Source: a virus
Taxonomy: Duplodnaviria; Heunggongvirae; Uroviricota; Caudoviricetes
DNA length: 31,116 nucleotides
Strand: one strand, 5' to 3'
IMG/VR virus record: IMGVR_UViG_2690316344_000014
Shown here piece by piece: positions 8,576 through 31,116 of the stretch. How positions within the stretch are numbered: position 1 is the stretch's first letter; every line of letters begins with the position of its first letter. A program made the translations under genes and the position numbers. The notes under the pieces were generated by a model. The model saw nothing but the letters and a program-made list of their open reading frames with translations, was not told the DNA's origin and did no database searches.

Positions 8576-8738
8576 GACTCCTCCTTGCTGCCAGTCGCAA
8601 CCATTTTTTATCAACCAAGCTGGCGGTATATCCGAGCAGTGTTGGTATTTCGGATGGCTTCAGCTCAGGTTTACGCTTACGACGATTTGGTACTCTGTAG
8701 ATGTGTCCGTTCATGACACGAATAAGCGGTGTAGCCAT
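8568..8738 (-). CDS. ninE: NinE
   Basis: 56 aa from the internal start [53 protein letters not shown]-type overlap with the upstream gene. Confidence 0.75.
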   Translation of the reverse strand: MATPLIRVMNGHIYRVPNRRKRKPELKPSEIPTLLGYTASLVDKKWLRLAARRSHG

Positions 8739-9193: not shown

Positions 9194-9315
9194 GCTTCAC
9201 CTCCGCAGAGGTCAAACGCTAGATGCAAAGAATTGCAGGTGCATTTCTGCATCTGTGAAAGGAGAAGATAGTTTGGATTGTATGTGCGCATAAACGTCCC
9301 CGTTTAGCGCAGAAG

Positions 9316-9344
9316 TCACCGGAGTTGTTCAGGCTCCGGTGACA
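9316..9344. terminator. perfect 10-bp-stem hairpin between ybcM and ybcN
   Basis: GTCACCGGAG-ttgttcagg-CTCCGGTGAC, about 65 nt downstream of the ybcM stop. No strong T-run on either side, so its function is uncertain. Confidence 0.3.
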
Positions 9345-9407
9345 TAATTATGCCGTGTTGATTTCCCAAAATCAAAATCGATAGAATTGCTCCTTCTTAA
9401 AACACTT

Positions 9408-10205: not shown

Positions 10206-10214
10206 ACTCTCACC

Positions 10215-10766: not shown

Positions 10767-10982
10767 AAAAACCTCTTTGTTATGACCTATCGTTATTTTA
10801 TTTGATATTCCTTTATCTCATTATGCATAAAGGCGCAATGTTCATGCAAAAGCAATCACAATTGTACCCCCAACCCAATTATTTGCCACAATATACACAA
10901 AGCACATTGATACTATCTAAAAACTCTGCTTTATTATTAGTAATACCTACGAAAGTCGGTGTTATTTTTTAACCTACCATTC

Positions 10983-11032
10983 AAAATACGTGACATACAC
11001 CATTTTGCTCATAATAATTTGTCACGTATTTT
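10983..11032. promoter_or_regulatory. 13-bp perfect inverted repeat with 24-bp spacer in the ybcL upstream region
   Basis: AAAATACGTGACA (10983-10995) and TGTCACGTATTTT (11020-11032). Candidate operator; no U-run, so not an obvious terminator. Confidence 0.3.
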
Positions 11033-11230
11033 CAGTATTTGAATCTGCGACCAAGAGTTCTCACCTAACAAATGATTAAGATTGTATAGCTCATTTACTA
11101 CCCCAATACAGCCGTACAAAACTCGCTTGTGGGAGCAAACAAAGTAATTACCCATTAAGTTTCGTCAAAGATAATTAATTCTGTCTTGCACTTTATCACC
11201 ATAGCATAACTTAAAATCCGAGATCATTAT

Positions 11231-12757
11231 TTAGAAATAAATCTCACCATCAACCATATATTTGAGAGCACTTATCGCCTGCTGGGCGGATATTACTTTC
11301 ATTAAAGGATAGTGTTTAAAAACAATGCCATTCATAAAATAGATATCACAGGTTTTATTATCCGTATTAATTATGATTTTTTCGAATGTTTTATAGGCAA
11401 GTGTACGGCATAACTCTCGTCCATTTTTACTGGTTAAGTCAATAGCATAAAAATCACTGAATGAATTTACACCTTTACTCTTCAAAGTTTTCAATGATAC
11501 CGAAGCCCTTCGTAATTCCTTATCTAATAGTCTTATTTTCTCTGCTATAGCGGTAACTTCAGGCGCGACAGACAATGCAACGATTAAATTATTAATTTTC
11601 ATCTGAAGCTCAATAATTTTTAACTCTAAAGTTTCATTAGCATCTTTCTTGTTTTCAACTGGTTGAATTTTGCTACAATTAAAAAGCAATTCATTAATGA
11701 TATTATAATCAACCAAATCTCTTTTTATTGATGGCCTGTCACATCGATGTAATCTTCTCATCGGACAAACATAATAGCCATGCAAACTTCCAGATGCCGC
11801 ATGAACAATCATGGTATTACCACAAGCCTCACACTTCATAACTGTTCGAAGTAGATTTATTAGCATAGGATTCTTGCTACTATTGCTAATACCAAAAGGT
11901 ACCAACCGAATTTCCTGTACAGCGTAAAACAAATCATCTGATATGACTCTGGGATAATAGCCAGCGATTTCACTTATCCCTTTCCCTCTTGCACGATATG
12001 AAGGTACGCATATACCTATCAGAGCTTTATTCGCTAATAATTTTTCAATTACAGAAGGTCCCCATGCACTTTCTTTTCCTGAGAAATTCTTTACAGCATG
12101 ATCATTTAAATACTTGGCTATTGCATTCAATGAGCGCCTTTCCATCCTGAGTTTAAAAATTAGCTCAATAGTTTTCACCCTGTCGGGGTCTGGAACAAAA
12201 GCCGTTCTTTTGTCATCTAAGGAGAGCCATCTCGGACAAGACGCCGTCATAATCGTACCTGATTCCAGTGCATCCTGCCGTTTTTTCTTCCATGATAATT
12301 TAACCCGACTTGACTTTATCTCGCTTTCTTCATTTGCCCTTTGTGCTATAAGTATGGCTTTTATTAATGAATATGGCTCATTCAAAGAGTCAATATTATA
12401 GACTGTATTGTCGCAAAGAGTTATAACATCAATACCGTGATTCAAAATCAATTTCAGACGTTCAATCGCTTCACCGACTTTTTCTCTTGAAAGTCTGTCC
12501 AGACTTTCAACTAACAATGTAGTTCCTGGCAATATATAACCATGCTCTATAGCATCTAAAAATTCCGAAAAAGCTCCTGATTGTGCATGCTTTCCTTTGA
12601 ATGCACTTAATCCTAAATCTTCATATGTTATGGTATCAAGATAATAATCACTATTTACCTTTAACCATTCAGCAATAAGTCTTCTCTGTCGGTTTAATGA
12701 GTCGCCAGACATCTGACCTGGTGATGAAAATCGCATATATGCTATGGCTTTTTTCAT
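11231..12757 (-). CDS. ybcK: large serine recombinase (resolvase/invertase N-domain plus recombinase and zinc-ribbon domains)
   Basis: 508 aa. N-terminal resolvase catalytic region (MKKAIAYMRFSSPGQ ... SLNRQ with the catalytic Ser) and a C-terminal Cys cluster (CEACGNTM ... YYVCP). Position matches DLP12 ybcK. Confidence 0.85.
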   Translation of the reverse strand: MKKAIAYMRFSSPGQMSGDSLNRQRRLIAEWLKVNSDYYLDTITYEDLGLSAFKGKHAQSGAFSEFLDAIEHGYILPGTTLLVESLDRLSREKVGEAIERLKLILNHGIDVITLCDNTVYNIDSLNEPYSLIKAILIAQRANEESEIKSSRVKLSWKKKRQDALESGTIMTASCPRWLSLDDKRTAFVPDPDRVKTIELIFKLRMERRSLNAIAKYLNDHAVKNFSGKESAWGPSVIEKLLANKALIGICVPSYRARGKGISEIAGYYPRVISDDLFYAVQEIRLVPFGISNSSKNPMLINLLRTVMKCEACGNTMIVHAASGSLHGYYVCPMRRLHRCDRPSIKRDLVDYNIINELLFNCSKIQPVENKKDANETLELKIIELQMKINNLIVALSVAPEVTAIAEKIRLLDKELRRASVSLKTLKSKGVNSFSDFYAIDLTSKNGRELCRTLAYKTFEKIIINTDNKTCDIYFMNGIVFKHYPLMKVISAQQAISALKYMVDGEIYF

Positions 12758-13013
12758 GGTGACACCTGCTAACGTATGCTTTTATAAACCTTAGTGGTGG
12801 GATATAATTTTTTGTTTATTTTTTATTTAAAAAGACAATTAAGGTCACATTATCTTGAATATACAACAATAATCGTATTGCAATTTTCTTACGCCATAAT
12901 CTTGAAAGCACAAAAGAATACATAAAAAATAAAGACATTAACAAAAAGCATAAAACGAGGCTCATATAAATATAAGAGCCTCCATATTTTAGTCGTTTAG
13001 AAACAAATTATTT

Positions 13014-13256
13014 TAATGTGGTGTGCTTCGTGACAATAAATTAATAATCAACACACCGGCACAAATCAACATCATGCCTATAATGGCTGGCAGGTCCAGC
13101 CGTTGGCCGAAAAATCCCCATGACAGTAAGCTAATCAGGACAATACCGACTCCTGACCAGATAGCATAAGCAATCCCTGTAGGAATATAAGCCAGCGTCT
13201 GAGCTAATAACCAGAATGATGCACAATAACAAATAATTGTACCAACAGATGGCCAT
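13014..13256 (-). pseudogene. emrE: emrE (small multidrug resistance transporter) 3' fragment, 5' end replaced by IS2
   Basis: Reverse-strand translation gives WPSVGTIICYCASFWLL ... ending LLSRSTPH-stop, the EmrE C-terminal ~80 residues. The reading frame breaks at the IS2 terminal repeat at 13257. Confidence 0.75.
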
Positions 13257-13966
13257 TGGATTTGCCCCTATATTTCCAGACACCTGTTATCACTTAACCC
13301 ATTACTGGCTTGCTGCCGTAGATATTCCCGTGGCGAGCGATAACCCAGTGCACTATGCGGATGCCATTCGTTATAATGCTCGAACGCCTCTGCAAGGTTC
13401 TTTGCTGCCGTTAACCCGTCTGGTTTGGGCATGACACTGATGTAGTCACGCTTTATCGTTTTCACGAAGCTCTCTGCTATGCCGTTACTCTCCGGACTCC
13501 GCACCGCCGTGCTCTTCGGTTCAAGCCCCAACATCCGGGCAAACTGCCGTGTTTCATTAGCCCGGTAGCATGAACCATTATCCGTCAGCCACTCTACTGG
13601 AGACGCCGGAAGCTCGTTGCCGAAGCGGCGTTCCACCGCTCCCAGCATGACGTCCTGTACTGTTTCACTGTTGAAGCCGCCCGTAGTGACCGCCCAGTGC
13701 AGTGCCTCACGGTCACAGCAGTCCAGCGCGAACGTGACTCGCAGTTTTTCTCCGTTATCACAGCGGAACTCGAACCCGTCAGAGCACCATCGCTGATTAC
13801 TTTCTTTCACAGCCACTCTGCCTGTATGTGCCCGTTTCGATGGCGGTACAGCAGGTTTTCGCTCAAGCAACAGCGCATTCTGGCGCATGATCCGGTAAAC
13901 ACGTTTGGCATTGATCGCAGGCATACCATCAAGTTCTGCCTGTCTGCGAAGCAGCGCCCATACCCG
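13257..13966 (-). mobile_element. IS2 partial copy (right end and 3' part of insD only, ~710 bp of ~1.3 kb)
   Basis: Reverse complement of 13257-13300 is the IS2 terminal sequence (...GGGTTAAGTGATAACAGGTGTCTGGAAATATAGGGGCAAATCCA). The InsD C-terminal 218 aa is intact. Similarity to IS2 stops after ...CGCCCATACCCG at 13966, where the lambda gam 3' end begins. Confidence 0.85.
13268..13924 (-). CDS. insD: IS2 transposase InsD, C-terminal fragment (IS3 family OrfB)
   Basis: [53 protein letters not shown] ... [24 protein letters not shown]. The N-terminal third of InsD and all of insC are absent. Confidence 0.85.
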
Positions 13967-14072
13967 TGCGTTTGATGACGATGTTGAGTTTCAGGAGCGC
14001 ATGGCAGAACACATCCGGTACATGGTTGAAACCATTGCTCACCACCAGGTTGATATTGATTCAGAGGTATAA
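13965..14072 (+). pseudogene. gam: gam 3' fragment (last ~35 codons of lambda Gam)
   Basis: Translates as [35 protein letters not shown]-stop, the lambda Gam C-terminus, directly upstream of bet. The 5' part is deleted at the IS2 junction. Confidence 0.8.
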
Positions 14073-14077
14073 AACGG

Positions 14078-14863
14078 ATGAGTACAGCACTCGCAACGCT
14101 GGCTGGGAAGCTGGCTGAACGTGTCGGCATGGATTCTGTCGACCCACAGGAACTGATCACCACTCTTCGCCAGACGGCATTTAAAGGTGATGCCAGCGAT
14201 GCGCAGTTCATCGCATTACTGATCGTTGCCAACCAGTACGGCCTTAATCCGTGGACGAAAGAAATTTACGCCTTCCCTGATAAGCAGAACGGCATCGTTC
14301 CGGTGGTGGGCGTTGATGGCTGGTCCCGCATCATCAATGAAAACCAGCAGTTTGATGGCATGGACTTTGAGCAGGACAATGAATCCTGCACATGCCGGAT
14401 TTACCGCAAGGACCGTAATCATCCGATCTGCGTTACCGAGTGGATGGATGAATGCCGCCGCGAACCATTCAAAACCCGTGAAGGCAGAGAAATCACGGGG
14501 CCGTGGCAGTCGCATCCTAAACGGATGTTACGGCATAAAGCCATGATTCAGTGTGCCCGTCTCGCCTTCGGATTTGCGGGTATCTATGACAAGGATGAAG
14601 CCGAGCGCATTGTCGAAAATACCGCATACACTGCAGAACGTCAGCCGGAACGCGACATCACTCCGGTTAACGATGAAACCATGCAGGAGATTAACACTCT
14701 GCTGATTGCCCTGGACAAAACATGGGATGACGACTTATTGCCGCTCTGTTCCCAGATATTTCGCCGCGACATTCGCGCATCGTCGGAACTGACACAGGCC
14801 GAAGCAGTGAAAGCTCTTGGATTCCTGAAACAGAAAGCCTCTGAACAGAAGGTGGCTGCATGA
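14078..14863 (+). CDS. bet: Red-beta single-strand annealing recombinase Bet
   Basis: 261 aa, [66 protein letters not shown]..., near-identical to lambda Bet over its full length. Confidence 0.95.
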
Positions 14864-15540
14864 CACCGGACATTATCCTGCAGCGTACCGGGATCGACGT
14901 GAGAGCTGTCGAACAGGGGGATGATGCGTGGCACAAATTACGGCTCGGCGTCATCACCGCTTCAGAAGTTCACAATGTGATAGCAAAACCCCGCTCCGGA
15001 AAGAAATGGCCTGACATGAAAATGTCCTACTTCCACACCCTGCTTGCCGAGGTTTGCACCGGTGTGGCTCCGGAAGTTAACGCTAAGGCGCTGGCCTGGG
15101 GAAAACAGTACGAGAACGACGCCAGAGCCCTCTTTGAGTTCACTTCCGGCGTGAATGTTACTGAATCCCCGATCATCTATCGCGACGAAAGTATGCGCAC
15201 CGCCTGCTCTCCCGATGGTTTATGCAGTGACGGCAATGGCCTTGAACTGAAATGCCCGTTTACCTCACGGGATTTCATGAAGTTCCGGCTCGGTGGTTTC
15301 GAGGCCATAAAATCGGCTTACATGGCCCAGGTGCAGTACAGCATGTGGGTGATACGAAAAGATGCCTGGTACTTTGCCAACTATGACCCGCGTATGAAGC
15401 GTGAAGGCCTGCATTATGTCGTGATTGAGCGGGATGAAAAGTACATGGCGAGTTTTGACGAGATGGTGCCGGAGTTCATCGAAAAAATGGACGAGGCACT
15501 GGCTGAAATTGGTTTTGTATTTGGGGAGCAATGGCGATGA
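14860..15540 (+). CDS. exo: lambda exonuclease (Red-alpha)
   Basis: 226 aa, [65 protein letters not shown]..., full-length match to lambda Exo. Start overlaps the bet stop. Confidence 0.95.
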
Positions 15541-15719
15541 AGCATCCTCACGATAATATCCGGGTAGGCGCGATCACTTTCGTCTACTCCGTTACAAAGC
15601 GAGGCTGGGTATTTCCCGGCCTTTCTGTTATCCGAAATCCCCTGAAAGCACAGCGGCTGGCTGAGGAGATAAATAATAAACGGGGAGCTGTATGCACAAA
15701 GCATCTCCCGTTGAGTTAA
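15531..15719 (+). CDS. lambda orf61-like small early protein
   Basis: 62 aa immediately after exo, the position of lambda orf61. Product unknown. Confidence 0.55.
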
Positions 15720-15883
15720 GAACGAGTATCGAGATGGCACATAGCCTCGCTCAAATTGGAGTCAGGTTTGTGCCAATACCAGTAGAAACAGACGAAGAAT
15801 TTCATACGTTAGCCGCATCCCTTTCACAAAAGCTGGAAATGATGGTGGCGAAAGCAGAAGCAGATGAGAGAGACCAGGTATGA
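15692..15883 (+). CDS. lambda orf63-like small early protein
   Basis: 63 aa, [63 protein letters not shown]. Position matches lambda orf63. Confidence 0.55.
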   Translation: MHKASPVELRTSIEMAHSLAQIGVRFVPIPVETDEEFHTLAASLSQKLEMMVAKAEADERDQV

Positions 15884-15959
15884 CAACCACTGAATGCATT
15901 TTTCTGGCAGCGGGCTTCATATTCTGTGTGCTTATGCTTGCCAACATGGGGCTTGTTCA

Positions 15960-16175
15960 ATGACACCTCAGCAAGAAAACGCCCTTCGCAGCATTGCCCG
16001 TCAGGCTAATTCTGAAATCAAAAAAGCCAGACAGCAGTTTCCGGATAAAAACGTCGATGACATTTGCCGTAGCGTACTGAAGAAGCACCGCGAAACGGTA
16101 ACGCTGATGGGATTCACACCGACTCATTTAAGCCTGGCGATCGGCATGTTAAACGGCGTCTTTAAGGAGCGATGA
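15960..16175 (+). CDS. lambda orf60a-like small early protein
   Basis: Internal start MTPQQENALRSIARQANSEIKKARQQFPDKNVDDICRSVLKKHRETVTLMGF...; position matches lambda orf60a. Confidence 0.5.
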   Translation: MTPQQENALRSIARQANSEIKKARQQFPDKNVDDICRSVLKKHRETVTLMGFTPTHLSLAIGMLNGVFKER

Positions 16176-16273
16176 ACATGAAAAGCAAAATCATCAGGGA
16201 GCTACAGGCTCCTTTTTTATTATTCGCATTCACCCTCAAGCGTATTAACCAACAATTCAGGGATTAATGGAAG

Positions 16274-16492
16274 ATGGCAGACATCATTGATTCAGCATCA
16301 GAAATCGAAGAATTACAGCGCAATACAGCAATAAAAATGCGTCGTCTGAACCACCAGGTTATATCTGCCACTCATTGTTGTGAGTGTGGCGATCCCATAG
16401 ATGAACGAAGACGCCTGGCCGTTCAGGGTTGTCGGACTTGTGCAAGTTGCCAGGAGGAGATCGAACTTAAGAACAAACAATGGGGATTGTGA
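16274..16492 (+). CDS. TraR/DksA-family C4 zinc-finger protein (lambda Orf73-like)
   Basis: 72 aa with CxxC-x17-CxxC (CCECGDPIDERRRLAVQGCRTCASC), the TraR/DksA C4-type zinc-finger layout. Phage homologues of this family are known to act on host RNA polymerase. Confidence 0.65.
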   Translation: MADIIDSASEIEELQRNTAIKMRRLNHQVISATHCCECGDPIDERRRLAVQGCRTCASCQEEIELKNKQWGL

Positions 16493-16539
16493 TGGCCTCA
16501 AAGCAGCAAATTTCAACATCGTCCAACTGAGGTGTAAAA

Positions 16540-16818
16540 ATGTTCAGAATCATTTTTCCTAACACCTGGTACGTCGACCACCACGGCACTCCCTGCAAAA
16601 TCCTGCGTTCTACCCACAACAAAGTTCACTACATCCGAAAAGGCAGAACATGTATCGCCAGCATGTTCCGCTTTAATCATGACTTTGAACCTGTGAATAA
16701 AGCTGATGCAGATCGGATAGCAGAAGAGATCGAAACGGCAGAACACATTAAGAAGTTACGTGACATGCGTTCAAAAAGCAGAGGTAACCATGGAATCATA
16801 CAGCCTCACACTCGATGA
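16540..16818 (+). CDS. small Cys/His-rich early-left protein (possibly Ea8.5-like)
   Basis: 92-aa ORF between the TraR-like gene and xis, with several His/Cys residues. Assignment is tentative, from position and size only. Confidence 0.4.
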   Translation: MFRIIFPNTWYVDHHGTPCKILRSTHNKVHYIRKGRTCIASMFRFNHDFEPVNKADADRIAEEIETAEHIKKLRDMRSKSRGNHGIIQPHTR

Positions 16819-17140
16819 GGCCTGTCAGTTTCTCAAGATATCCAGACCTACCGCTACCAACTGGATACGAACAGGCCGCCTACAGGCAACACGCAAAGAC
16901 CCCACTAAACTAAAATCTCCTTACCTCACAACACGACAAGCCTGCATTGCGGCGCTTCAGTCTCCGCTGCATACTGTCCAGGTGAGCGCGGGTGATGGCA
17001 TAACAGAGGAAAGAAAATGTCACTCTTCCGCAGAGGTGAAATATGGTACGCCAGTTTCACATTGCCGAACGGTAAAAGATTTAAACAGTCTCTTGGAACA
17101 AAGGACAAAAGGCAGGCGACAGAACTCCATGACAAGCTAA
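16790..17140 (+). CDS. xis: excisionase (Xis), HTH DNA-binding
   Basis: Internal start with a good SD (GAGGTAACC-ATG): [37 protein letters not shown]. Immediately upstream of int, but overlaps it by ~120 nt, so the true 3' end is uncertain and the gene may be frameshifted. Confidence 0.55.
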
Positions 17141-18180
17141 AGGCTGAAGCATGGCGGGTCAGCAAACTTGGTGAAATACCTGATATAACGTTCGAGGAAG
17201 CGTGTGTCAGGTGGCTTGAAGAGAAAGCACATAAAAAATCACTGGACGATGACAAAAGCCGGATCGGATTCTGGCTTCAACATTTCGCAGGAATGCAACT
17301 AAGAGACATTACTGAATCAAAAATTTATTCAGCAATGCAGAAAATGACGAACCGGCGTAATGAGGAAAACTGGAAACTCAGGGCAGAAGCATGCAGAAAA
17401 AAAGGGAAACCTGTTCCAGAATACAAGCCAAAACCAGCGTCTGTTGCAACGAAGGCTACGCATCTTTCATTTATAAAAGCCCTACTAAGAGCCGCAGAGC
17501 GTGAATGGAAAATGCTGGATAAGGCACCAATTATTAAAGTGCCTCAACCAAAGAATAAACGGATCCGCTGGCTGGAGCCCCATGAAGCACAAAGGCTGAT
17601 TGATGAATGTCCGGAGCCATTAAAGTCTGTTGTTGAATTTGCACTGGCAACAGGCTTAAGACGCTCGAACATCATCAACCTTGAATGGCAACAAATAGAT
17701 ATGCAGCGCCGGGTGGCATGGATAAACCCGGAAGAGAGTAAATCAAACCGCGCAATCGGCGTTGCGCTGAATGATACTGCATGTCGCGTATTGAAAAAAC
17801 AAATCGGGAATCATCACCGTTGGGTATTTGTGTACAAGGAAAGCTGTACCAAACCAGACGGAACGAAAGCGCCAACAGTAAGGAAGATGCGGTATGACGC
17901 AAACACAGCCTGGAAAGCGGCGCTGAGACGGGCTGGTATTGATGATTTCAGATTTCACGACTTGAGACACACCTGGGCAAGTTGGCTGGTTCAAGCCGGA
18001 GTCCCGTTGTCAGTGTTACAGGAAATGGGAGGCTGGGAGTCTATCGAAATGGTTCGTCGATATGCTCACCTTGCACCTAATCACCTTACCGAACACGCAC
18101 GGCAAATAGACTCGATCCTGAACCCATCGGTCCCAAATTTGTCCCAGTCAAAAAATAAGGAAGGTACTAATGATGTGTAA
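17017..18180 (+). CDS. int: prophage tyrosine integrase (DLP12 IntD-like)
   Basis: 387 aa with a C-terminal catalytic region ([42 protein letters not shown], i.e. HxxR ... Y). Ends 15 nt before the tRNA-Thr fragment and is convergent with it. Confidence 0.9.
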
Positions 18181-18194: not shown

Positions 18195-18243
18195 TGGTGC
18201 CGATAATAGGAGTCGAACCTACGACCTTCGCATTACGAATGCG
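18195..18243 (-). other. att core: 3' 49 nt of a tRNA-Thr(CGU) gene (thrW-like), not a complete tRNA
   Basis: Reverse complement is CGCATTCGTAATGCGAAGGTCGTAGGTTCGACTCCTATTATCGGCACCA: anticodon stem-loop (anticodon CGT), T-arm and CCA end. Sequence 5' of the anticodon stem does not continue as D-arm or acceptor stem. Confidence 0.8.
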
Positions 18244-18331
18244 TAAATTGATCTTGTAAAATCAATACCTATCGAATTTAAATGGATTTTTTGCCACAAT
18301 ATTGCCACAGTTCGTTAGGAATCAGACAGAA

Positions 18332-19405
18332 ATGGCGACTATACGCAAACGTGGTAACTACCAATGGGAAGCTCAAATCCGTAAACGTGGTTTTCCCTCT
18401 CAAACCAAAACCTTTAACACCAAAGTAGAAGCAGAAGCTTGGGCCAAAATGATCGAGTCAGAAATGGCGAGAGGAGTTTGGCTTAGCCGCAGCGAAGCGG
18501 AATCTACGACATTGTATGAAGCCCTAACGCGATATGAAAAAGAGATTGTTCCCGACAAAAAAGGGGCAGTGCAAGACCGATCATTGGTGCGGATACTAAA
18601 AGGCACTCAGCTGGCGAAAAACTATATGGCCAGCATCAGGAGTGCCGATGTCGCCAAGCTGAGAGATGAATGGTTGAAAATCTATGCTCCTGCAACCGTT
18701 TTAAGGCGTTTGGCCTTACTTTCTCATGTATTCAATGTTTCGCGGAAAGAATGGGGCATGGAGAGCCTGCTGAACCCCGTAGAGGCCATTCGCAAACCCC
18801 AACCCAAGAACTCCAGGACCAGACGCCTAGAAGCGCTGCCTGTAGTTTCTGAGAAAACCGGTGTTACGTCAGGAAAGCAAATAGCCAACGAGATCGAACA
18901 TATCATCGCCGCAACACATTCATTAGTATTGCCAGCAATCATTCTTCTGGCGTTAGAGACAGCCATGCGCCGTAGCGAAATCGCAGAGCTTCGATGGCGC
19001 TTTATCGATCTTGATCGGCGAGTTGCACATCTGCCGGATACTAAGAATGGTAATGCCCGCGATGTCCCTTTATCAACGAAAGCCATTACGATACTGTCCA
19101 GTCTCAAGGAACATTCTAAGCCAGCTGCTGATAAGGTTTTTGATATGCGTGCAGACGCGATTACCCGAGCTTTTGACCGAGCTGTAAAACGAGCCAGAGA
19201 ACGATACGAGAAAACAAACTCATTATGTGATGAATCTTTCCTTAAAGATTTAAGATTTCATGACCTTCGACATGAAGCAACTTCTCGACTTGCTGAAATT
19301 TTCCCTATGCATGAACTAACCAAAATTACAGGACATAAAGATCCAAGAATGCTAATGCGGTATTATCATCCAAAAGCTGAAGATTTGGCGTTAAAGTTGA
19401 AATAA
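18332..19405 (+). CDS. second tyrosine site-specific integrase/recombinase
   Basis: MATIRKRGNYQWEAQIRKRGF... with C-terminal catalytic residues (RRSE, LRFHDLRHEATSRL, MLMRYYH). The ORF can start at 18302. Lies just across the att fragment from the prophage int. Confidence 0.85.
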   Translation: MATIRKRGNYQWEAQIRKRGFPSQTKTFNTKVEAEAWAKMIESEMARGVWLSRSEAESTTLYEALTRYEKEIVPDKKGAVQDRSLVRILKGTQLAKNYMASIRSADVAKLRDEWLKIYAPATVLRRLALLSHVFNVSRKEWGMESLLNPVEAIRKPQPKNSRTRRLEALPVVSEKTGVTSGKQIANEIEHIIAATHSLVLPAIILLALETAMRRSEIAELRWRFIDLDRRVAHLPDTKNGNARDVPLSTKAITILSSLKEHSKPAADKVFDMRADAITRAFDRAVKRARERYEKTNSLCDESFLKDLRFHDLRHEATSRLAEIFPMHELTKITGHKDPRMLMRYYHPKAEDLALKLK

Positions 19406-20821: not shown

Positions 20822-22225
20822 TCAAGATTTTTTACTGCCAGTTAAACTATCACCCTCAAACTCATCCTGTTCGTGGTTAGTCTGACGATCGGCTGTGTGT
20901 TTACGTATTTGATTCGCTATTTCCCCACCAACGGTCTGTTGTCTTCGGATAGTATTAGTACTTCCCTTCATCATCTGATACTCCGAAGCTCCGTTAGACA
21001 ACCCGCTCGCCATGTGAGAAGCCATGCGGCCAGCTCGTGAGAATGATGAAGCAAACCCCTGGCTTCCTCCGCTGACGCTACCTGTATTACTCCCTGCAGA
21101 AGAACCACCGGAACCGCCTGATGGTTGTCCTCCAGAAGTATCTACGGAACCGGTATCTTCCCCTCCGCCAAATCCTCCACCTGAACCACCTTTATCACCA
21201 GAACCAGATTCTTCGGCCATCGCCGCTTGTGCAGATTCAAATGCTGCTTTTAGAGCGGAAGCACCACCACTGACTTGAGCTGTAGCACTTATTGCCATTG
21301 CCCCAGCGCCACTGATTGCAGTAGTAGCAGCGCCAGTAATCATACCTGCTCCAAAACCACCGATCCCTTGTAAGGACGCTCCTCCAACAACGCCTGATAA
21401 CAACAACGGTAATTTATTCGTCAATACTAAAAGAATAATTGACGCCAGAAGTAAAACAATAAGACTATTAAGATCAGGAATATCATTTTTAATAATAGAA
21501 AAATACTGATCTATAAATGATTGCCCAATCCCAATGATTAATGTCATCGTAAATAACTGAATACCAATCGATAATACTGTGCGTAAGTAATTTATTGCTA
21601 TATCAGAAGTCCATTTCGAGCCACCAAACCCAAGCAAAATAACTCCTGCATAACACAACACCCATGCAGAAACTAACATTATTAGCATATTTATCGCGAT
21701 AAGCGCCATTACTACTAATACTATTATCGCGACGGTTATCATAATGGTCGAAATCATTGGAGACCAAATTGATGCTGCTGAACTGACCTTTGTTAATATC
21801 ACAAATGCCATATCCACTATGCTGGAGGGTGAAATACCAGTACTTGTTCCTAAAGCATTTGCTGCAAGTTGTCTCATTGAGTTAATTATAGATTGTGATA
21901 TGGCTGGGCCGTTGATTAAAAGATAATAAAAAAAACCAATCACGGCAAAAAAACGAACTATTTCTGCAAGTGCACTGATTAAACCTTCCCCTTGCATCGC
22001 CAACATACCAAATGTCCAAACCATACTTATTAATACCACCCCCCAGAAGAGCCAATTTGCATAATCACCAATTACTAATGACCATGTGCTGGCTACTTGC
22101 TGAAACTTATCTAATAACGTATCAAGTAATCCGCTACTATCTAATTGACCAGCATAAGCATTTACAGAAAACAAAAAAAACATTCCTAAAAAAGTGAGCT
22201 TGCTTACTATTCTCATAATTACCAT
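20822..22225 (-). CDS. trbL: P-type conjugative transfer protein TrbL/VirB6
   Basis: 467 aa. N-terminal signal plus multiple transmembrane helices, then a C-terminal Gly/Ser-rich low-complexity tail (GGSGGGFGGGEDTGSVDTSGGQPSGGSGGSSAGS), typical of TrbL. Confidence 0.8.
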   Translation of the reverse strand: MVIMRIVSKLTFLGMFFLFSVNAYAGQLDSSGLLDTLLDKFQQVASTWSLVIGDYANWLFWGVVLISMVWTFGMLAMQGEGLISALAEIVRFFAVIGFFYYLLINGPAISQSIINSMRQLAANALGTSTGISPSSIVDMAFVILTKVSSAASIWSPMISTIMITVAIIVLVVMALIAINMLIMLVSAWVLCYAGVILLGFGGSKWTSDIAINYLRTVLSIGIQLFTMTLIIGIGQSFIDQYFSIIKNDIPDLNSLIVLLLASIILLVLTNKLPLLLSGVVGGASLQGIGGFGAGMITGAATTAISGAGAMAISATAQVSGGASALKAAFESAQAAMAEESGSGDKGGSGGGFGGGEDTGSVDTSGGQPSGGSGGSSAGSNTGSVSGGSQGFASSFSRAGRMASHMASGLSNGASEYQMMKGSTNTIRRQQTVGGEIANQIRKHTADRQTNHEQDEFEGDSLTGSKKS

Positions 22226-22392
22226 TCTCGCTTAGGGCTAGGATTGTTATTGCCACGCAGGGCACATTTATCGTAGTTATGTTCGTTCAATTTATTCTCT
22301 GGCGTCGATAAACAATCTTCATCTTTTTTATCGCAAGAGCATAGAATTAATGAAATTATTAGAATAAAAATGACCAAAAGTTTATCTTTCAT
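22219..22392 (-). CDS. small putative lipoprotein in the TrbK (entry-exclusion) position
   Basis: Found by hand (57 aa, below the ORF-track cut-off): MKDKLLVIFILIISLILCSCDKKDEDCLSTPENKLNEHNYDKCALRGNNNPSPKREW. Hydrophobic N-terminus followed by Cys; sits between trbJ and trbL as trbK does in IncP plasmids. Confidence 0.45.
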   Translation of the reverse strand: MKDKLLVIFILIISLILCSCDKKDEDCLSTPENKLNEHNYDKCALRGNNNPSPKREW

Positions 22393-22403: not shown

Positions 22404-23198
22404 TCACCAAATTCGCTTCGGGCTTGGTGTGTTCTCGCCAGCTAACGCTTTTTCATCAGCGACTATTTGTTGGGCTTCTTTATCAGCCTCAGCCTGTGCC
22501 AGTGTTGCTGCAGCGTTTTGCTGAGCTACCAGAAGCGAGCGGATTTGCAGCAACTGGTTCGTTTGAGCACTGGCAAGCTGGTTAGCGGCCTGAATAGCTT
22601 CCATTTGCCCTTGTGCGCCGGTTGCCTGCGTTTGTAAATCTGCAAGGTTGTCAGCATCGCTTTGCAGTGTTTCCTGCTGTTCGTCAAGAGCCTTAAATAC
22701 AGCGTCATTGGCCTTTTTACGTGCCTCAGAGCTGTTCTGTTCAGCTTTGCGCAGTGCGCTAATTTCATCCGCAGTACATTCAACATTACTGTTAAAGCAC
22801 GGTGATGAGCGGTAGTAATTCACGTCCTGATAACGTTTCAGATATGAATCAAGACTCCCGGCCTGGTTTTTGTAGTAATTTAGGGTGTCCTGCGCCTGCA
22901 ACAATTTGTTGATGGTCGAATTGGCCTGATCCCAGATATAGGCTGCAGGTGCGACTGTATTTTTGAGCATGTTTTCATACTGCTGCAGCTGCGTCTGGTA
23001 CTGCTGGATCTGTTTTGCCACAGCCTGAACGTTGTTGACTGCGCTGATTGTGGTCTGCACCACATTAGTACCATCGATTACAGGGATACCGGCTGTCGCC
23101 GGTAATGCCATGATGGACGCCAGGAAGGAAGCAGCTAATGATTTTTTAGCTGCTAAAATCCCTCTCAGTGATGAAAATACTCGGAGCATTAACTTCAT
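22404..23198 (-). CDS. trbJ: P-type conjugative transfer protein TrbJ (VirB5-like)
   Basis: 264 aa, signal peptide then a coiled-coil-rich Q/A-rich sequence (QIQQYQTQLQQYENMLKN ...). The trbJ-trbK-trbL order is conserved. Confidence 0.75.
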   Translation of the reverse strand: MKLMLRVFSSLRGILAAKKSLAASFLASIMALPATAGIPVIDGTNVVQTTISAVNNVQAVAKQIQQYQTQLQQYENMLKNTVAPAAYIWDQANSTINKLLQAQDTLNYYKNQAGSLDSYLKRYQDVNYYRSSPCFNSNVECTADEISALRKAEQNSSEARKKANDAVFKALDEQQETLQSDADNLADLQTQATGAQGQMEAIQAANQLASAQTNQLLQIRSLLVAQQNAAATLAQAEADKEAQQIVADEKALAGENTPSPKRIW

Positions 23199-23279: not shown

Positions 23280-23645
23280 TTATTTATTCAAGATTCTATC
23301 CATAATATTTCTTAGTTCTTGTCTGGTTGATTCTATTTTAGCAAGCAACGTTTTTATCAATGAGGGTGAAAAATCAACTGTGCGTGGATCGTTAGCTAAC
23401 CACAGTTTAAGTAACCCACCAAGTCGACCAAGATCAGCATTTACTCGGCTAAGCTCTACAACCTGTTCAATATCTACCATAGACTCAACCTGATAACCCA
23501 TTGCTACTTTACGAATGAAACTCGCTACACTTAAGCCAGATGCTTCTGCATTATCCTGGATTTGCGCTTTTTCATCTGGCAAACAATAAACTTTAATTGG
23601 TGTACTATTTTTTCTAGTCTGAGAAACGGTCATATCATTCTCCAT
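23280..23645 (-). CDS. traJ: relaxosome accessory oriT-binding protein, TraJ/MobC family
   Basis: 121 aa with PIKVYCLPDE and DLGRLGGLLKLWL motifs resembling RP4 TraJ / the MobC family. Sits immediately beside an RP4-like oriT. Confidence 0.75.
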   Translation of the reverse strand: MENDMTVSQTRKNSTPIKVYCLPDEKAQIQDNAEASGLSVASFIRKVAMGYQVESMVDIEQVVELSRVNADLGRLGGLLKLWLANDPRTVDFSPSLIKTLLAKIESTRQELRNIMDRILNK

Positions 23646-23660: not shown

Positions 23661-23765
23661 TCAGCCTCGCAGAGCAGGACTCCGTTGAGCAGCTCAGCTG
23701 CGAATAAGGGAAGGTAAAGTAGAAGCACCGTTTACGGTGGGCCTACTTTACATATCCTGCCCTAC
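23661..23765 (+). other. origin of transfer (oriT), IncP/RP4 type, with TraJ-binding inverted repeat and nic site
   Basis: CAGCCTCGCAGAGCAGGACTCCGTTGAGCAG ... GCGAATAAGGGAAGGTAAAGTAGAAGCACCGTTTACGGTGGGCCTACTTTACATATCCTGCCC closely parallels the RP4 oriT as I recall it from mob vectors. Inverted repeat GTAAAGTAG (23714-23722) / CTACTTTAC (23743-23751), then the ATCCTG/C nick consensus at 23754-23760. Confidence 0.8.
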
Positions 23766-23915: not shown

Positions 23916-24197
23916 TTATTCTCGCGGCTTGGGTTTTGGCGGCCTGCCACGTTTCCTTTGACATCTATTTATCTCTTTCGCTATATCGTCATTTTCTGTC
24001 TTTGACTCAACAGATTTATCTATCCAGTCCTTAACATCTTCTTTACGCCAGAGAAGACGTTTATTACCGGGAAGACGGCATCTTGGTGGAAGACATTTTG
24101 GATTTCGCGTTGCATCACTGCGGATACTTTTTACAGTTTTCTTTAATGCAAAAGCCAACTCTTCAACGGTTATAAGTTCTGGCATAACTGATTTCAT
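23916..24197 (-). CDS. alpA: AlpA-family DNA-binding protein (excisionase/transcriptional regulator-like)
   Basis: MKSVMPELITVEELAFALKKTVKSIRSDATRNPKCLPPRCRLPGNKRLLWRKEDVKDWI, the AlpA/MerR-like winged-HTH pattern, with a basic C-terminal tail. The ORF can start at 24209. Confidence 0.7.
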   Translation of the reverse strand: MKSVMPELITVEELAFALKKTVKSIRSDATRNPKCLPPRCRLPGNKRLLWRKEDVKDWIDKSVESKTENDDIAKEINRCQRKRGRPPKPKPRE

Positions 24198-24231
24198 CGA
24201 AGAACCCATCTCTCAGTAGAAATTTGAGGAT

Positions 24232-24259
24232 TTTAGCGGCTAAAATTTTAGCCGCTAAA
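24232..24259. promoter_or_regulatory. 28-bp perfect palindrome immediately upstream of alpA
   Basis: TTTAGCGGCTAAAA-TTTTAGCCGCTAAA, 23 nt upstream of the longest alpA start. Candidate operator. Confidence 0.45.
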
Positions 24260-24509
24260 GTTTGCTAACCAACGTTATGAATTGAGAATAATTAAAACTT
24301 ACTGGCAAAAAGAATAATGTCAACAGGGTTTTTATTCATCGGATTCTTACTCCATATGAAATTGGTTTTATTGACCGATTTCTGAATGACACTAAGGTTT
24401 TAATAATTCCTTTAATCTTTTTGGTTATATAAAAGGTTAAAGATCAGGTTAGAGAGGTGTGGAAAAGCGATATATTCACTTGTTTACTATGACAATTTTA
24501 AATTATATC

Positions 24510-24572
24510 CGTACCTCAAATGTCATGAAAGCGTACCTCATATGTCATAAAGGCGTACCTCATATGTCATAT
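24510..24572 (+). repeat. three tandem ~22-bp direct repeats (iteron-like)
   Basis: CGTACCTCAAATGTCATGAAAG, CGTACCTCATATGTCATAAAGG, CGTACCTCATATGTCATAT, head to tail. Confidence 0.7.
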
Positions 24573-24615
24573 AATAAAAAATAAGCAAACAAGTTATACA
24601 CAATATTATTAACAG

Positions 24616-24865
24616 AATCTGTGGATAAATACACAGATTATACATGATAAAATAGATTGTTTAGCTAAACTAAATAACAATAAATAAAATGAAACAAAAT
24701 GTAAATAACAGGGGGGGGGGTGTAAGTGACTTATAAATTTGGTTAGCTAACCTTTATAAGAAACACTGTTTGTAAATGATTCATTTCTGACAACGGATAT
24801 ATCGAATTTGAGTAAGAAAAACACTTCAACTAACCTTACTCTCTGATTTGTTTAGCTAAACAAAT
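24616..24865. promoter_or_regulatory. cluster of palindromes upstream of the higA-like gene, three sharing a TTAGCTAA core
   Basis: AATCTGTG-n8-CACAGATT (24616-24639); GTTTAGCTAAAC (24659-24670); CTTATAAA-ttt-GGTTAGCTAACC-TTTATAAG (24730-24760); ATTTGTTTAGCTAAACAAAT (24846-24865, 20 bp perfect). Confidence 0.5.
24711..24720. repeat. G10 homopolymer tract
   Basis: Ten consecutive G in an otherwise AT-rich intergenic region. Confidence 0.9.
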
Positions 24866-24889: not shown

Positions 24890-24904
24890 AAAAAAAAGGG
24901 GGGG
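24890..24904 (+). repeat. A8G7 homopolymer tract overlapping the ribosome-binding site of the higA-like gene
   Basis: AAAAAAAAGGGGGGG ends 2 nt before the ATG at 24907. Confidence 0.9.
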
Positions 24905-24906
24905 AT

Positions 24907-25164
24907 ATGAGGACAATAAATGCTGCACCTTCAACTGTCGGAGAGATTTTATACGAAGAATTCTTGAAACCATTGGATATGCCTCCCGCAAGACTTGCTG
25001 AACTGATGGATACATCATATGAAAAAATTTGGGAAATAATTAAAAATGAGCGAAATATAACTCTTGAAGAAGCTATTCAACTCTCGATAATTTTCAATAC
25101 AGATGCATCTTTTTGGGTGAAACTGCAAGAGCTACATGAGGCATGGTTTAATAAACAAAAGTAA
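24907..25164 (+). CDS. HigA-like XRE-family HTH protein (antitoxin-like / transcriptional regulator), apparently orphan
   Basis: 85 aa, MRTINAAPSTVGEILYEEFLKPLDMPPARLAELMDTSYEKIWEIIKNERNITLEEAIQLSIIFNTDASFWVKLQ, the HigA/VapI-type pattern. No HigB/RelE-like ORF found on either side. Confidence 0.7.
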   Translation: MRTINAAPSTVGEILYEEFLKPLDMPPARLAELMDTSYEKIWEIIKNERNITLEEAIQLSIIFNTDASFWVKLQELHEAWFNKQK

Positions 25165-28371: not shown

Positions 28372-29049
28372 TTACATGTAGATATTCATTAAACTGTCAA
28401 ATAGTCTTTTGGTTAACTCTTTTTCCGCTCGTGCTTCGATTTGAGCCATACCATTTCGGAAGAGTTTTAATTTACCGCTAAATTCTTGGTCATGAATAGT
28501 ACATGTCAATCGATCAAGTCTCATTTTTTTGTGAATAAGCTCATCTTTGAAATATTTTTTAAGATCGCTGGTACTATTAATTTGCATCTTGGCAAGAGCA
28601 AATTCAGCAACTTGAATTTGAGATACATCTAGTTGCACTATATTAAGTGTCAACTCTGTGTTTAAAGAACTGAACCATATGAACGGGTCAATCTCAATCT
28701 CTTCTAAGCTGGTACCAAGACCAAGGTTTTTTACCAGTGCCTGAGCAAATGGTTTAAGTGTTCTCGGTGGATTATCAATAAGTAAAACTGGGGTGTATTG
28801 TTCGTCAAAACTGAAAGATGTTACTCTATATTCAATGCGTTCAACAGCGGTACTGTTGCCGTATAGATTACTTATTCTATCTTCGCTAATTATCTTTTCG
28901 ATGAAGCGAGCGTGAAAATGAGATGTTCGTGATTTATCAAATATAAACCCTTTCCCTTTCTCTTCAGTAAAAGGATCACGCATGAGTTTTTCAACTGTTT
29001 CACTAGTAGTGAAACGATTGTTGAGTTTAATCCATTTAAATTTTTTCAT
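28372..29049 (-). CDS. hypothetical protein, gene C of a coupled three-gene operon
   Basis: 225-aa ORF whose start overlaps the last 14 nt of the upstream gene. AT-rich; no recognisable motif. Confidence 0.6.
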   Translation of the reverse strand: MKKFKWIKLNNRFTTSETVEKLMRDPFTEEKGKGFIFDKSRTSHFHARFIEKIISEDRISNLYGNSTAVERIEYRVTSFSFDEQYTPVLLIDNPPRTLKPFAQALVKNLGLGTSLEEIEIDPFIWFSSLNTELTLNIVQLDVSQIQVAEFALAKMQINSTSDLKKYFKDELIHKKMRLDRLTCTIHDQEFSGKLKLFRNGMAQIEARAEKELTKRLFDSLMNIYM

Positions 29050-30115
29050 GCTCTTCCACCTTTTTACCCGTCACGATATTATAGGCGTCTGCTGCTGACT
29101 GTTCAATTAGTAGGCTGATTTTCTTCTTTTCAACTTCATTTGCTGCACGAATAGTAACATTGTATCCACTACCTTTTTGGTTATTGATTCCTTTAATTTG
29201 ATAGGAAAAATCAGAGCAATTTTCTGAATCCTTAAAGAAAGCTTCAACCAAAATCCTGTCTCCTATTCCGTTTTTAGGTTTAGCAGACCAAGCAATTCTT
29301 CCAATATAGTATCCTTTGTTATGTAGTTGGGTGAAAATAGCAGAACTATTAACAGAATCACCTTTTAGAACCGCTTTTTTTACGAATCCTGTCTCGATTT
29401 CTTCTTCTTCCTCGTCATCACCTTTGCTTGTTGAACGGTTAAGCTCTACATTAGTAACGTCGTCAATTTCATATCCACTCAAGCCGCCCATAACCTCTTG
29501 AAAAAACTGACTTCTTAGCGCTGGTGTAGGAATCGCTTCTAAAGAAATTTCAAACTTTTCAACATCAACGGATTTAATCTTTGACAACTCTTTTTGTAAT
29601 AGTGTTATTACATCTTTAGCCTTTTGGTTCTGAGGCATACGAATATCAACATTATCGTTATTTACAGTAAGATCAATCTTGATGTTTCGGTTGTCTATCT
29701 GACGCAATGCTGTTCTGGACAAGTCTACTTCTTGGTAGTTTACCTCGATTGCTAAAGACCCATCTTTTTTCGCAGTGATTTTTACTGTTTCACCAGAGCC
29801 AGTGGCTAATTTTCTTTTAACTAACTCTGCTGCTGTTTTTAATTCCGTCTGAGAGGATGATGCTTGAAGCTTGACGCTAGTTATACTCTCTCTTTTATCA
29901 TAAGTTTGTACAAGTTCCTTAATAGAATCTAGATCACTATATCCCTGAGGTAGTTTGCAAACCTCTTCAATTAATTCCTCCTTTGTTAAGTCTTGAGCAA
30001 CAATAATACCTTTCCGTAATAATATCTCGCGTAATCTTGCGATGGTAATTCGTTTATGATGAAGTGCATCATATATATTTTTGTCAGTTGCGAAATAAAT
30101 ATTCATGTTATTCAT
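29036..30115 (-). CDS. hypothetical protein, gene B of a coupled three-gene operon
   Basis: 359 aa with an acidic stretch (GDDEEEEEIE). Its ATG overlaps the upstream stop by 1 nt (TAATG). No family recognised. Confidence 0.6.
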   Translation of the reverse strand: MNNMNIYFATDKNIYDALHHKRITIARLREILLRKGIIVAQDLTKEELIEEVCKLPQGYSDLDSIKELVQTYDKRESITSVKLQASSSQTELKTAAELVKRKLATGSGETVKITAKKDGSLAIEVNYQEVDLSRTALRQIDNRNIKIDLTVNNDNVDIRMPQNQKAKDVITLLQKELSKIKSVDVEKFEISLEAIPTPALRSQFFQEVMGGLSGYEIDDVTNVELNRSTSKGDDEEEEEIETGFVKKAVLKGDSVNSSAIFTQLHNKGYYIGRIAWSAKPKNGIGDRILVEAFFKDSENCSDFSYQIKGINNQKGSGYNVTIRAANEVEKKKISLLIEQSAADAYNIVTGKKVEEHEKI

Positions 30116-31116
30116 TAACGTTGCTCCATGCCTATAGCTTCAAGACTATATTGAATTACCATTGCAGCTGTTTTTTCGAATGCAACTTTTGAAAACAAAC
30201 GTTCACTTTCGCCTGATAGCCAATGGGCACTATATTTTTGCTTTGCTCTTTCAAAGTGATGAATGGAGTCTTCATGCGGATTTATATGACAATGTCTAAT
30301 TTTTATTCTTTTTGCATCAGTCAGTATTTGATAATTAGAAAGCATGTCAAGGAAATAGATGAACTCATCTTCACTATTCCCTGGTTGATTATAATAAATT
30401 ACGTAACCACTATCTTCTTTTTCACCCATCCAATCGAATTCTTCATGCTTTATTATTATGAATGGTGATGTTAAGACCTCAACAGTAGCTGCAGTCTTAT
30501 TGTTGATAGGATGTTTTATCCTAGTTAGTGCTAAGTCTGGGTAATAGAAATAGTACAAATCTGGTTGAGGTAAAGCCCCGGTACCAATAAGCATTTTAAT
30601 ATCTGATGCTATATTTATCATATCGGATATTTTGAATGGATCTAAAAGGTGTAATTTTATGTTTGGGGGGCATTTTATTATTTCAGGGTCGACTTTCTTC
30701 ATCACGGATGAGTAAAAATCCTTGTCATAAAGGTTGTCATGATTATAGAGAAATAATAAACCTCGAACTTTGTAACCTAATGACTCATCCCGCACATATC
30801 GTTTACACCACTGTTGGCTAATGTTGGCGCATTCTGTAGCGAGAGCTAAAGAAGAAAGTGCACCTTCTACCATCCCTTTGCCGATACTACTTTGAGCATA
30901 GCTTTTGAGGTCTGTGTTCAAGTACACAATCTCTTCTTCATAAGGATCGGTATAGTAAAACACCACATCGCTAGGATGTGTTTTTTTGTCATGAGCCTCT
31001 AGGTCGCAATCCCAGTTCATATCTTGACTAGTAGCTCGTTGCCATTTGAAAATTTTAAAAATATCTTGGGTTATCTTATTTGCAACATGCTGTATTGAAG
31101 AGGTCTCTCCGCCCAT
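30115..31116 (-). CDS. hypothetical protein, gene A of a coupled three-gene operon; possible PD-(D/E)xK nuclease-like motif; start at or beyond the window edge
   Basis: At least 333 aa. The ORF reaches the last base of the window, where an ATG lies. A hydrophobic strand ending in Asp (DVVFYYTD57) is followed by EIVYLNTD69-L-K71, a pattern like restriction-endonuclease-fold motifs II/III. Confidence 0.55.
   Translation of the reverse strand: MGGETSSIQHVANKITQDIFKIFKWQRATSQDMNWDCDLEAHDKKTHPSDVVFYYTDPYEEEIVYLNTDLKSYAQSSIGKGMVEGALSSLALATECANISQQWCKRYVRDESLGYKVRGLLFLYNHDNLYDKDFYSSVMKKVDPEIIKCPPNIKLHLLDPFKISDMINIASDIKMLIGTGALPQPDLYYFYYPDLALTRIKHPINNKTAATVEVLTSPFIIIKHEEFDWMGEKEDSGYVIYYNQPGNSEDEFIYFLDMLSNYQILTDAKRIKIRHCHINPHEDSIHHFERAKQKYSAHWLSGESERLFSKVAFEKTAAMVIQYSLEAIGMEQR

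Follow-up and report, generated by a model that had tools for sequence, protein, structure and literature searches.

A conserved putative miniature IncP-1 oriV with Kor operators in a replicase-less relative of the PIME islands

The PIMEs are IncP-dependent islands with the genes int, alpA, repA, (traJ), trbJ and trbL and a cargo of defence systems, which excise, replicate about eight-fold and are transferred with IncP helpers (bioRxiv 10.64898/2026.01.12.698999). Their oriV consists of four iterons and a DnaA box placed just downstream of their own repA, and their authors note that variants without a core component might exist (bioRxiv 10.64898/2026.01.12.698999). The search reported in that preprint required repA, and a replicase-less type was therefore probably not collected. 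The plasmid origin of RK2 is organized in the order DnaA boxes, iterons and AT-rich unwinding element (PMC4980987). The iteron consensus of the RK2/RP4 TrfA protein is TGACA(G/C)(A/T)TGAGGGGC, and clade II IncP/P-1 plasmids have an iteron variant with T and A at positions 13-14 (PMC9499019). The RK2 TrfA has been reported to start replication only on a cluster of five iterons (PMC8034659). The island type examined here is represented in the literature by StmGI_0323 of Salmonella Typhimurium, a thrW island in tandem with a prophage, which shares with our locus HigA, a 97-aa protein, TraJ (121 aa), TrbJ (264 aa), a 57-aa protein, TrbL and a recombinase; its report gives the ORF content only, with no mention of iterons, an oriV or Kor operators (PMC5575072).

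We analysed a window of 31,116 nucleotides, from the IMG/VR virus record IMGVR_UViG_2690316344_000014 (Caudoviricetes), whose features are collected in Table 1. The window is a piece of E. coli chromosome, and from position 18195 on, it matches at 99.6% an island situated next to tRNA-Thr (thrW) and proA in E. coli PM22 and other strains. The 49-bp duplicate of the thrW 3' end at 18195-18243 recurs in PM22 at either end of the island, with 13.7 kb between the two copies, and the end distal to the integrase lies about 700 bp past our window. Behind int come genes for a 296-aa membrane-like protein and a VbhA-family antitoxin and then a small ORF; these are followed in turn by trbL, the gene of a 57-aa lipoprotein, trbJ, traJ, the 97-aa gene, a spacer, the higA-like gene and the cargo. 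A lambdoid prophage at about 926-17285, with its own integrase at 17017-18180, precedes the island, the two elements forming a tandem at the duplicate of the thrW 3' end, an arrangement which mirrors the P22-island tandem of StmGI_0323. In the cargo at 28372-31116 (minus strand), the products of three genes correspond to Hp3, Hp2 and Hp1, which PADLOC lists as candidate defence proteins (E 3e-80 to 5e-176), the last of them being a PD-(D/E)XK nuclease domain protein in the RefSeq annotation; the nearby 420-aa and MltR-like genes showed no defence match.

Table 1. Features of the island and its spacer in the window (positions are those of the window; "." marks sites given without a strand)
Feature	Position	Strand	Basis or remark
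49-bp duplicate of the tRNA-Thr (thrW) 3' end	18195..18243	+	integrase-side island end
Tyrosine integrase of the island	18302..19405	+	family scan and annotation
trbL	20822..22225	-	TrbL 58% identical to that of pEC187_3
57-aa lipoprotein gene in the trbK position	22219..22392	-	position between trbL and trbJ
trbJ	22404..23198	-	TrbJ 89% identical to that of pEC187_3
traJ (NikA-like oriT-recognition protein)	23280..23645	-	PF21983, E 6e-23; 70% identical to TraJ of pEC187_3
IncP-type oriT	23707..23761	+	inverted repeat 23707-23731/23734-23758; nic TATCCTG/CC at 23753-23761 (slash, nick)
97-aa "alpA-like" small DNA-binding protein	23916..24209	-	RefSeq start 24197
Two tandem KorB operators O_B, TTTAGCGGCTAAA and TTTAGCCGCTAAA	24232..24259	.	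exact TTTAGC(C/G)GCTAAA
AT-rich block, four GGTT(A/T) 12-13-mers including GGTTAAAGATCAGGTTAGAG	24396..24459 (24396, 24423, 24435, 24447)	+	candidate DNA-unwinding element
Three 22-bp TrfA-type iterons	24510..24575	+	other-strand core TGACAT(A/T)TGAGGTAC; match to pEC187_3 oriV
DnaA-box-like TTATACACA	24594..24602	+	8/9 to TTATCCACA; 36 bp past the last iteron core
Perfect DnaA box TGTGGATAA (= TTATCCACA on the minus strand)	24620..24628	-	62 bp from the iterons
KorA operator O_A GTTTAGCTAAAC, copy 1	24659..24670	.	exact; 12/12 invariant in 7 islands
O_A-like palindrome GGTTAGCTAACC	24741..24752	.	10/12 to O_A; 12/12 invariant in 7 islands
KorA operator O_A, copy 2	24850..24861	.	11/12 invariant in 7 islands; ends 45 bp upstream of the higA-like ATG
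HigA-family HTH gene, without partner toxin	24907..25164	+	NCBIfam TIGR02607, E 2e-18

The island possesses the integrase, trbJ and trbL of the PIMEs, as well as an IncP-like oriT with a conserved nic site beside an inverted repeat of 25 nt, lying upstream of traJ and aligning with the oriT of pEC187_3; it has no repA of its own. The Rfam traJ-II RNA motif RF01760 was detected at 23663-23762 on the minus strand (93 bits against a gathering score of 40). Given that it coincides with the oriT repeat and nic site, this match may reflect the oriT DNA hairpin rather than an RNA element, and the Rfam scan of the spacer returned nothing beyond it. The 57-aa lipoprotein shows no detectable similarity to TrbK of pEC187_3, while TrbJ is closely related; the entry-exclusion specificity of the island may differ from that of the plasmid. 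The HigA-like protein is 51% identical to the HigA encoded beside the oriV of p14EC001a. As regards the PIME component alpA, the 97-aa protein is at most a candidate: it matched neither the Pfam nor the NCBIfam AlpA model, although its homologues in Betaproteobacteria hold the alpA position before a TrfA-family gene and traJ. These distant homologues (45-58% identity), two of which are labelled AlpA by JGI, directly precede the TrfA-family gene in Burkholderia and Thiobacillus. The loci in question have a PIME-like layout of an alpA-like gene followed by a TrfA-family (PF07042) gene (L019 5863-8052 and L020 8001-9380), the products of the latter being 28-32% identical to plasmid TrfA. In the Burkholderia locus (L019) a NikA/TraJ gene comes next, with an O_B site at the end of this traJ-like gene, as in pEC187_3; in the Thiobacillus locus (L020) 4.7 copies of a 23-bp repeat follow right after the TrfA-family gene. 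The enterobacterial thrW islands differ from both in that they lack the TrfA-family gene, and their oriV, which is of the plasmid type, flanks the alpA-like gene on the opposite side.

The spacer contains an array of three head-to-tail 22-bp units, CGTACCTCAAATGTCATGAAAG, CGTACCTCATATGTCATAAAGG and CGTACCTCATATGTCATATAAT, which a repeat search of the window placed at starts 24510, 24532 and 24554. TRF recovered it as a period-22 array at 24510-24571 (2.8 copies, 92% matches, score 103), and the 17-mer core CGTACCTCATATGTCAT occurs three times in the 31-kb window with up to 3 mismatches, against 0.03 expected; at least 3 occurrences were seen in none of 100 shuffles. These results confirm the three tandem direct repeats recorded in a preliminary description of this DNA, whose consensus holds for copies 1 and 2 and, in copy 3, for the 17-nt core but not for the end, which reads ATAAT. 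The AT-rich intergenic setting given there was likewise borne out, the array lying in a 697-bp spacer of 69.7% A+T (window mean 57.6%) between two divergent genes; of the names assigned to these neighbours, HigA-like agrees with the TIGR02607 match, whereas alpA finds no counterpart among the Pfam and NCBIfam models. At up to 3 mismatches there are no extra copies of the repeat in the window, inclusive of the island end at 18195-18243, and none at either end of the PM22 island. A 41-aa ORF overlapping the array (24459-24584) was considered as a coding explanation of the repeat and rejected as not credible, since a period of 22 is not a multiple of 3.

Sequence comparisons unify this array with the vegetative origins of IncP-1 plasmids. 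Copy 1 is identical over 22/22 nt to one of the oriV iterons of pEC187_3, a plasmid with seven iterons in 22-bp register and two more near trfA, all of them CGTACCTCA(A/T)ATGTC. In IncP-1-backbone plasmids, the stretch 24434-24570 of the window finds several matches per record within the trfA-klcA spacer; the iterons of these plasmids sit between trfA and the antirestriction gene klcA, and trfA is their constant neighbour in three plasmid clades. When set against the published RK2 consensus (PMC9499019), the island core agrees at 12/15 positions, and the 22-bp spacing falls within the 22-23 bp of such arrays. Taken together, these observations make it almost certain that the array comprises TrfA-type iterons of the IncP-1 (clade II) oriV, and the earlier remark that the repeats resemble iterons was accordingly correct, these 22-mers being identical to pEC187_3 oriV iterons.

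The surroundings of the iterons also conform to a plasmid origin. On one side lies the AT-rich block, which ends in GGTTAAAGATCNGGTTAGAG, is homologous to the GGTTAAA repeats adjoining the iterons in three plasmid clades, and is separated from the first iteron by 58-60 bp in all sampled islands and by 60 bp in all three plasmid clades. On the other side, the first DnaA-box-like site is found 35-37 bp from the last iteron in all islands except that of Serratia (L017), in which the first box is at +49 bp; the plasmid value is 37 bp. The perfect DnaA box beyond it is kept in most island variants and is degenerate in L005 and L008. The order of DnaA boxes, iterons and AT-rich repeats is thus the same as in RK2 oriV and the three plasmid clades. 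Overall, the locus shares with the IncP-1 oriV (RK2/RP4 and the clade II plasmids pEC187_3, p14EC001a and p2017.17.03CC_6) the iteron core, the 22-bp register, the order of sites and the 60- and 37-bp spacings. It differs in having three iterons as against seven and one to two outlying ones in the plasmids, in lacking an adjacent trfA, in its chromosomal location inside an integrative element and, in some variants, in its mixture of iteron subtypes; the GC-rich segment found beyond the AT-rich repeats in plasmid oriVs is also absent from the island in our sequence comparison. We accordingly regard the iterons, AT-rich block and DnaA boxes, as judged from their sequence, as a putative shortened clade II IncP-1 oriV with three iterons in place of seven, and it looks like the plasmid oriV minus four iterons through a clean in-register loss. 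Three iterons, the number in every resolved variant, fall short of the at least five of the RK2 minimal origin, a rule which may not hold for clade II TrfA.

The same spacer contains operators for the repressors KorA and KorB of IncP-1 plasmids, as defined by the O_A and O_B sequences of RK2 (PMC2680271). Two exact copies each of O_A and O_B are found within 24232-24861 and nowhere else in the 31-kb window. The O_B pair, with 23/26 columns invariant in seven islands, lies 23-50 bp upstream of the first ATG (24209) of the 97-aa gene; pEC187_3 has nine O_B sites, and its trfA and korA promoters carry the O_A 12-mer GTTTAGCTAAAC as well as O_B. These plasmid promoters have the form TTGAC(T/C)-17-TAAACT, with O_A overlapping the -10 and O_B abutting the -35, an arrangement that could not be recognised in the island: the island O_A sites have no discernible -35, and O_B is downstream of the only TTGACA. 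A sigma-70 scan gave 3 sites, fewer than the 6.0 of shuffled sequence, and for this reason no promoters were assigned to the O_A and O_B sites. Other spacer sites include a block at 24792-24807, CAACGGATATATCGAA, which contains the palindrome GATATATC and shows no variation among the seven aligned islands. A homopolymer at 24711-24720, located between O_A copy 1 and the palindrome GGTTAGCTAACC, varies in length from G10 in our window through G8 in PM22, whose copy is 99.6% identical, to G3-G5 in the remaining variants, and may be either a slippage-prone tract or a sequencing artefact; a further G7 run (24898-24904) abuts the ribosome-binding site of the higA-like gene.

The structural conservation of this arrangement was assessed in variants from E. 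coli (94, 85, 78 and 73% spacer identity), Enterobacter quasiroggenkampii, E. vonholyi, Serratia marcescens, Citrobacter freundii and further assemblies; a scan of species-representative genomes gave seven loci, among which L006, L007, L009 and L010 were unrelated or uninformative chance matches. The array is conserved in related islands: exactly three in-register iterons with the same geometry are present in 14/14 resolved variants from Escherichia, Enterobacter, Serratia, Citrobacter and the further assemblies, and a frameshift-ridden assembly, L021, shows two iterons by the strict pattern. Constraint was evaluated on seven aligned spacers with a mean pairwise identity of 75%, using motifs pre-defined from the plasmid and the literature, namely two O_B, three iteron cores, two DnaA boxes and two O_A. 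Invariant positions make up 91/104 (88%) of these motifs against 286/605 (47%) of the rest of the spacer, and 0/20000 random block placements reached the motif value. The iteron cores have 32/36 invariant positions in the seven islands (36/20000 random placements), and the AT-rich block has 16/19 invariant columns. The fixed number and register of the iterons, together with the invariance of the motif positions, count against passive decay. At the level of genes, the core from trbL to the higA-like gene persists across variants in association with completely different cargo, which is the candidate three-gene system here and CBASS, ABC-3C, NACHT, AAA+HNH or type I R-M in other variants. Between variants with unchanged iteron cores, the identity of the HigA-like and AlpA-like proteins falls to 46-80%.

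The four bases 5' of the iteron core, which correspond to positions reported to be important for RK2 TrfA contacts (PMC9499019), differ among islands, with CGTA, GCCC and CCTA all being represented. Mixed arrays of the types CCTA/GCCC/GCCC, TGTA/GCCC/GCCC and CGTA/CTAC/CTAC occur in L004 (20301-20366), L005 (20294-20359), L012 (6960-7025) and L022. The plasmid arrays are homogeneous, with CGTA in pEC187_3, GCCC in p14EC001a and p2017.17.03CC_6, and CTA in one Salmonella contig. The mixed arrays could widen the range of usable helpers or could reflect recombination with different plasmids. Separately, an extra segment of about 250 bp follows O_A copy 2 in L004 (20650-20940) and L008, and the higA-like gene after it starts with GTG and has a product only 46-49% identical to that of our window; the insertion and the divergent gene together point to module exchange at this position in these two variants.

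None of the proteins expected to act at these sites appears to be encoded by the island. With pEC187_3 queries, trfA, korA, korB, incC, traI and traK yielded no match in the window (tblastn, E<=10), and the same was true of two TrfA-family proteins from related elements used as queries at E<=10. Nor did tblastn at this threshold reveal any remnant of trfA between the alpA-like gene and traJ. Pfam and NCBIfam scans of the window detected no Rep family, and no trfA is annotated in the whole PM22 island, leaving the iterons without a cognate trfA on the same replicon. The earlier statement that the element has an oriT and no obvious replication gene is therefore upheld, the IncP oriT being present and both Rep and TrfA matches absent. 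It follows that the trans-acting partners of the iterons, O_A, O_B and nic site would have to come from a plasmid. Relatives of trfA were found in 5426 complete E. coli genomes at 65 plasmid places and four chromosomal places, one of these four, the chromosomal trfA among the matches listed, being in the laboratory strain EPI300. The island is present in 135/5426 of these genomes and trfA plasmids in 65, so that chance alone would give about 1.6 genomes with both. The plasmid collection contained no extrachromosomal island copy. Two island-length short-read contigs, L022 and L023, have their ends inside the 49-bp att repeat and were considered as excised circles; the same ends are expected from an integrated copy under an assumed k=31 assembly, and they thus constitute no evidence either way.

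Given the above observations, we favor, with a probability of roughly 55%, the reading that the iterons are used as an origin fired in trans by the TrfA of a helper plasmid after excision of the island. As the island encodes no TrfA, it probably replicates only when a helper plasmid supplies this protein. In a cell with a cognate IncP-1 plasmid and an excised island, the plasmid TrfA would bind the three iterons and, together with the host DnaA, would open the AT-rich block, upon which the island circle would be replicated. Plasmid KorB at the two O_B sites and KorA at O_A would tie expression of the alpA-like, traJ and trb genes and of the higA-like gene to the plasmid circuit; RK2 KorB loaded at O_B is reported to act at a distance on KorA-bound promoters (PMC11790492). 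KorB loaded at O_B might also allow IncC-KorB partition of the island, and the helper relaxase would nick the island oriT together with the island's own TraJ. On this reading, the island would amount to a collection of cis sites (oriV, oriT, O_A and O_B) served by helper proteins. Evidence on the opposite side includes the three iterons against five, the lack of the GC-rich segment and the mixed 5' ends in several variants, which could cut the number of sites usable by any one TrfA. Further, KorA and KorB are repressors, and the flanking promoters should consequently be shut down, not activated, by a helper.

The main rival, the possibility that the array acts as a sink or handcuffing partner for TrfA that lowers the copy number of the helper, or as a TrfA sensor changing transcription of the alpA-like and higA-like genes, without being an origin, appears rather unlikely. 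It is in keeping with several facts. The three iterons are below the five said to be needed for RK2 initiation (PMC8034659), the array lies between two divergent regulator genes alongside helper-repressor operators, and an active PIME was associated with reduced amplification of pB10 and a "potential incompatibility" in the preprint, which leaves open the helper signal that PIMEs sense (bioRxiv 10.64898/2026.01.12.698999). However, a sink or sensor would need the iterons alone, and it fits less well with the conservation of the AT-rich block, the DnaA boxes and the exact spacings while the intervening sequence diverges; as a sink, moreover, one chromosomal copy of three sites would be a weak competitor for a multicopy plasmid with nine. 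We consider it still less probable that the locus is an inert relic, a functionless piece of plasmid oriV captured by recombination with an IncP-1 plasmid. The absence of an initiator in cis, an array shorter than that of the plasmids, the degenerate DnaA boxes of L005 and L008 and the mosaic nature of the island modules are all compatible with such an origin. Against this, the excess of invariant positions in the motifs (88% versus 47%) was matched by none of the 20000 permutations, and iteron number, register and geometry are alike in all resolved variants from at least 4 genera, whereas decay would have produced variable copy numbers and indels.

The preliminary description had looked instead to proteins of the island itself, proposing the AlpA-like protein, the HigA-like protein or the integrase as binders of the array, with a function as operators or recombination-directionality sites. 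The location between two small HTH genes, and the fact that excisionase or integrase arm binding typically involves repeated sites, make this proposal understandable; we nevertheless deem it highly improbable. The same 22-mers are present nine times in the oriV of pEC187_3, a plasmid with neither AlpA-like nor HigA-like genes, on which grounds binding by island proteins is very unlikely. The AlpA-like protein is absent from enterobacterial plasmids, and the iteron cores remain unchanged while both this protein and the HigA-like one diverge among variants. A directionality role is further disfavored by position, as the array is about 6.3 kb from the attL-type end and no copies of the repeat, of the sort that an element-encoded protein would bind near the att ends, occur near either end of the PM22 island.

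Returning to the origin fired in trans, a wider and more tentative proposal, which we hold at somewhat under even odds, is that the islands constitute a family that has given up its own replicase, retains of the helper backbone just the cis sites (a three-iteron mini-oriV, KorB sites, KorA operators and an oriT), and after excision is replicated, regulated, perhaps partitioned and transferred wholly by IncP-1 plasmid proteins, with mixed iterons admitting the TrfA of several clades. Within this proposal the KorB sites could double as operators and centromere. The element would then be, as far as our searches show, the first natural integrative element with a vegetative origin borrowed from its helper. 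Our search of the literature, outside which most subscription journals lie, turned up no report of such islands with plasmid-type iterons or Kor operators. The locus has a bearing on questions raised by the PIME preprint, namely how islands sense IncP helpers and whether variants minus one core gene work, in that it offers candidate cis sites for three helper proteins (TrfA, KorA and KorB) in a replicase-less variant. If the miniature oriV fires in trans, mimicry of a replication origin would join oriT mimicry and the replacement of mating-pore subunits as a means of exploiting plasmids, and three iterons with preserved geometry could suffice for a TrfA origin. This would have consequences for the spread of island-borne defence systems and for the stability of IncP-1 plasmids in island-carrying strains. 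Some IncP-1 plasmids of this kind carry mcr-1 or carbapenemase genes.

On the whole, the locus is best described, from its sequence, as a probable IncP-1 oriV in miniature, conserved and accompanied by Kor operators, in an island that is related to the PIMEs but lacks their replicase. In laboratory systems with oriV and trfA in trans, an RK2-type oriV that has no trfA beside it can be replicated by TrfA provided from another location. The copy-control systems of the EPI300 type are engineered and contain the full RK2 oriV, whereas the island is natural and has a candidate origin of three iterons. With the PIMEs, GIsul2 and the "IncP island" (PMC5704250), our island shares a tyrosine integrase, a small candidate alpA-type gene, traJ, trbJ-trbK-trbL, an IncP-like oriT and a large defence cargo; IncP plasmids act as helpers in those elements, which replicate after excision. 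It is distinguished from them by the absence of the repA or repC that each of them encodes, by a helper-type oriV upstream of the alpA-like gene and by integration at thrW, as against guaA in the cited relatives. The SGI1 system with its IncC helpers offers a further parallel, in that an island with an incomplete transfer system provides substitutes for some mating-pore subunits and depends on the presence of a helper for its replication. SGI1, however, uses a Rep_3 initiator and an oriV of its own, which an activator of the helper turns on (PMC5704250), while in the island described here the initiator itself would be that of the helper.
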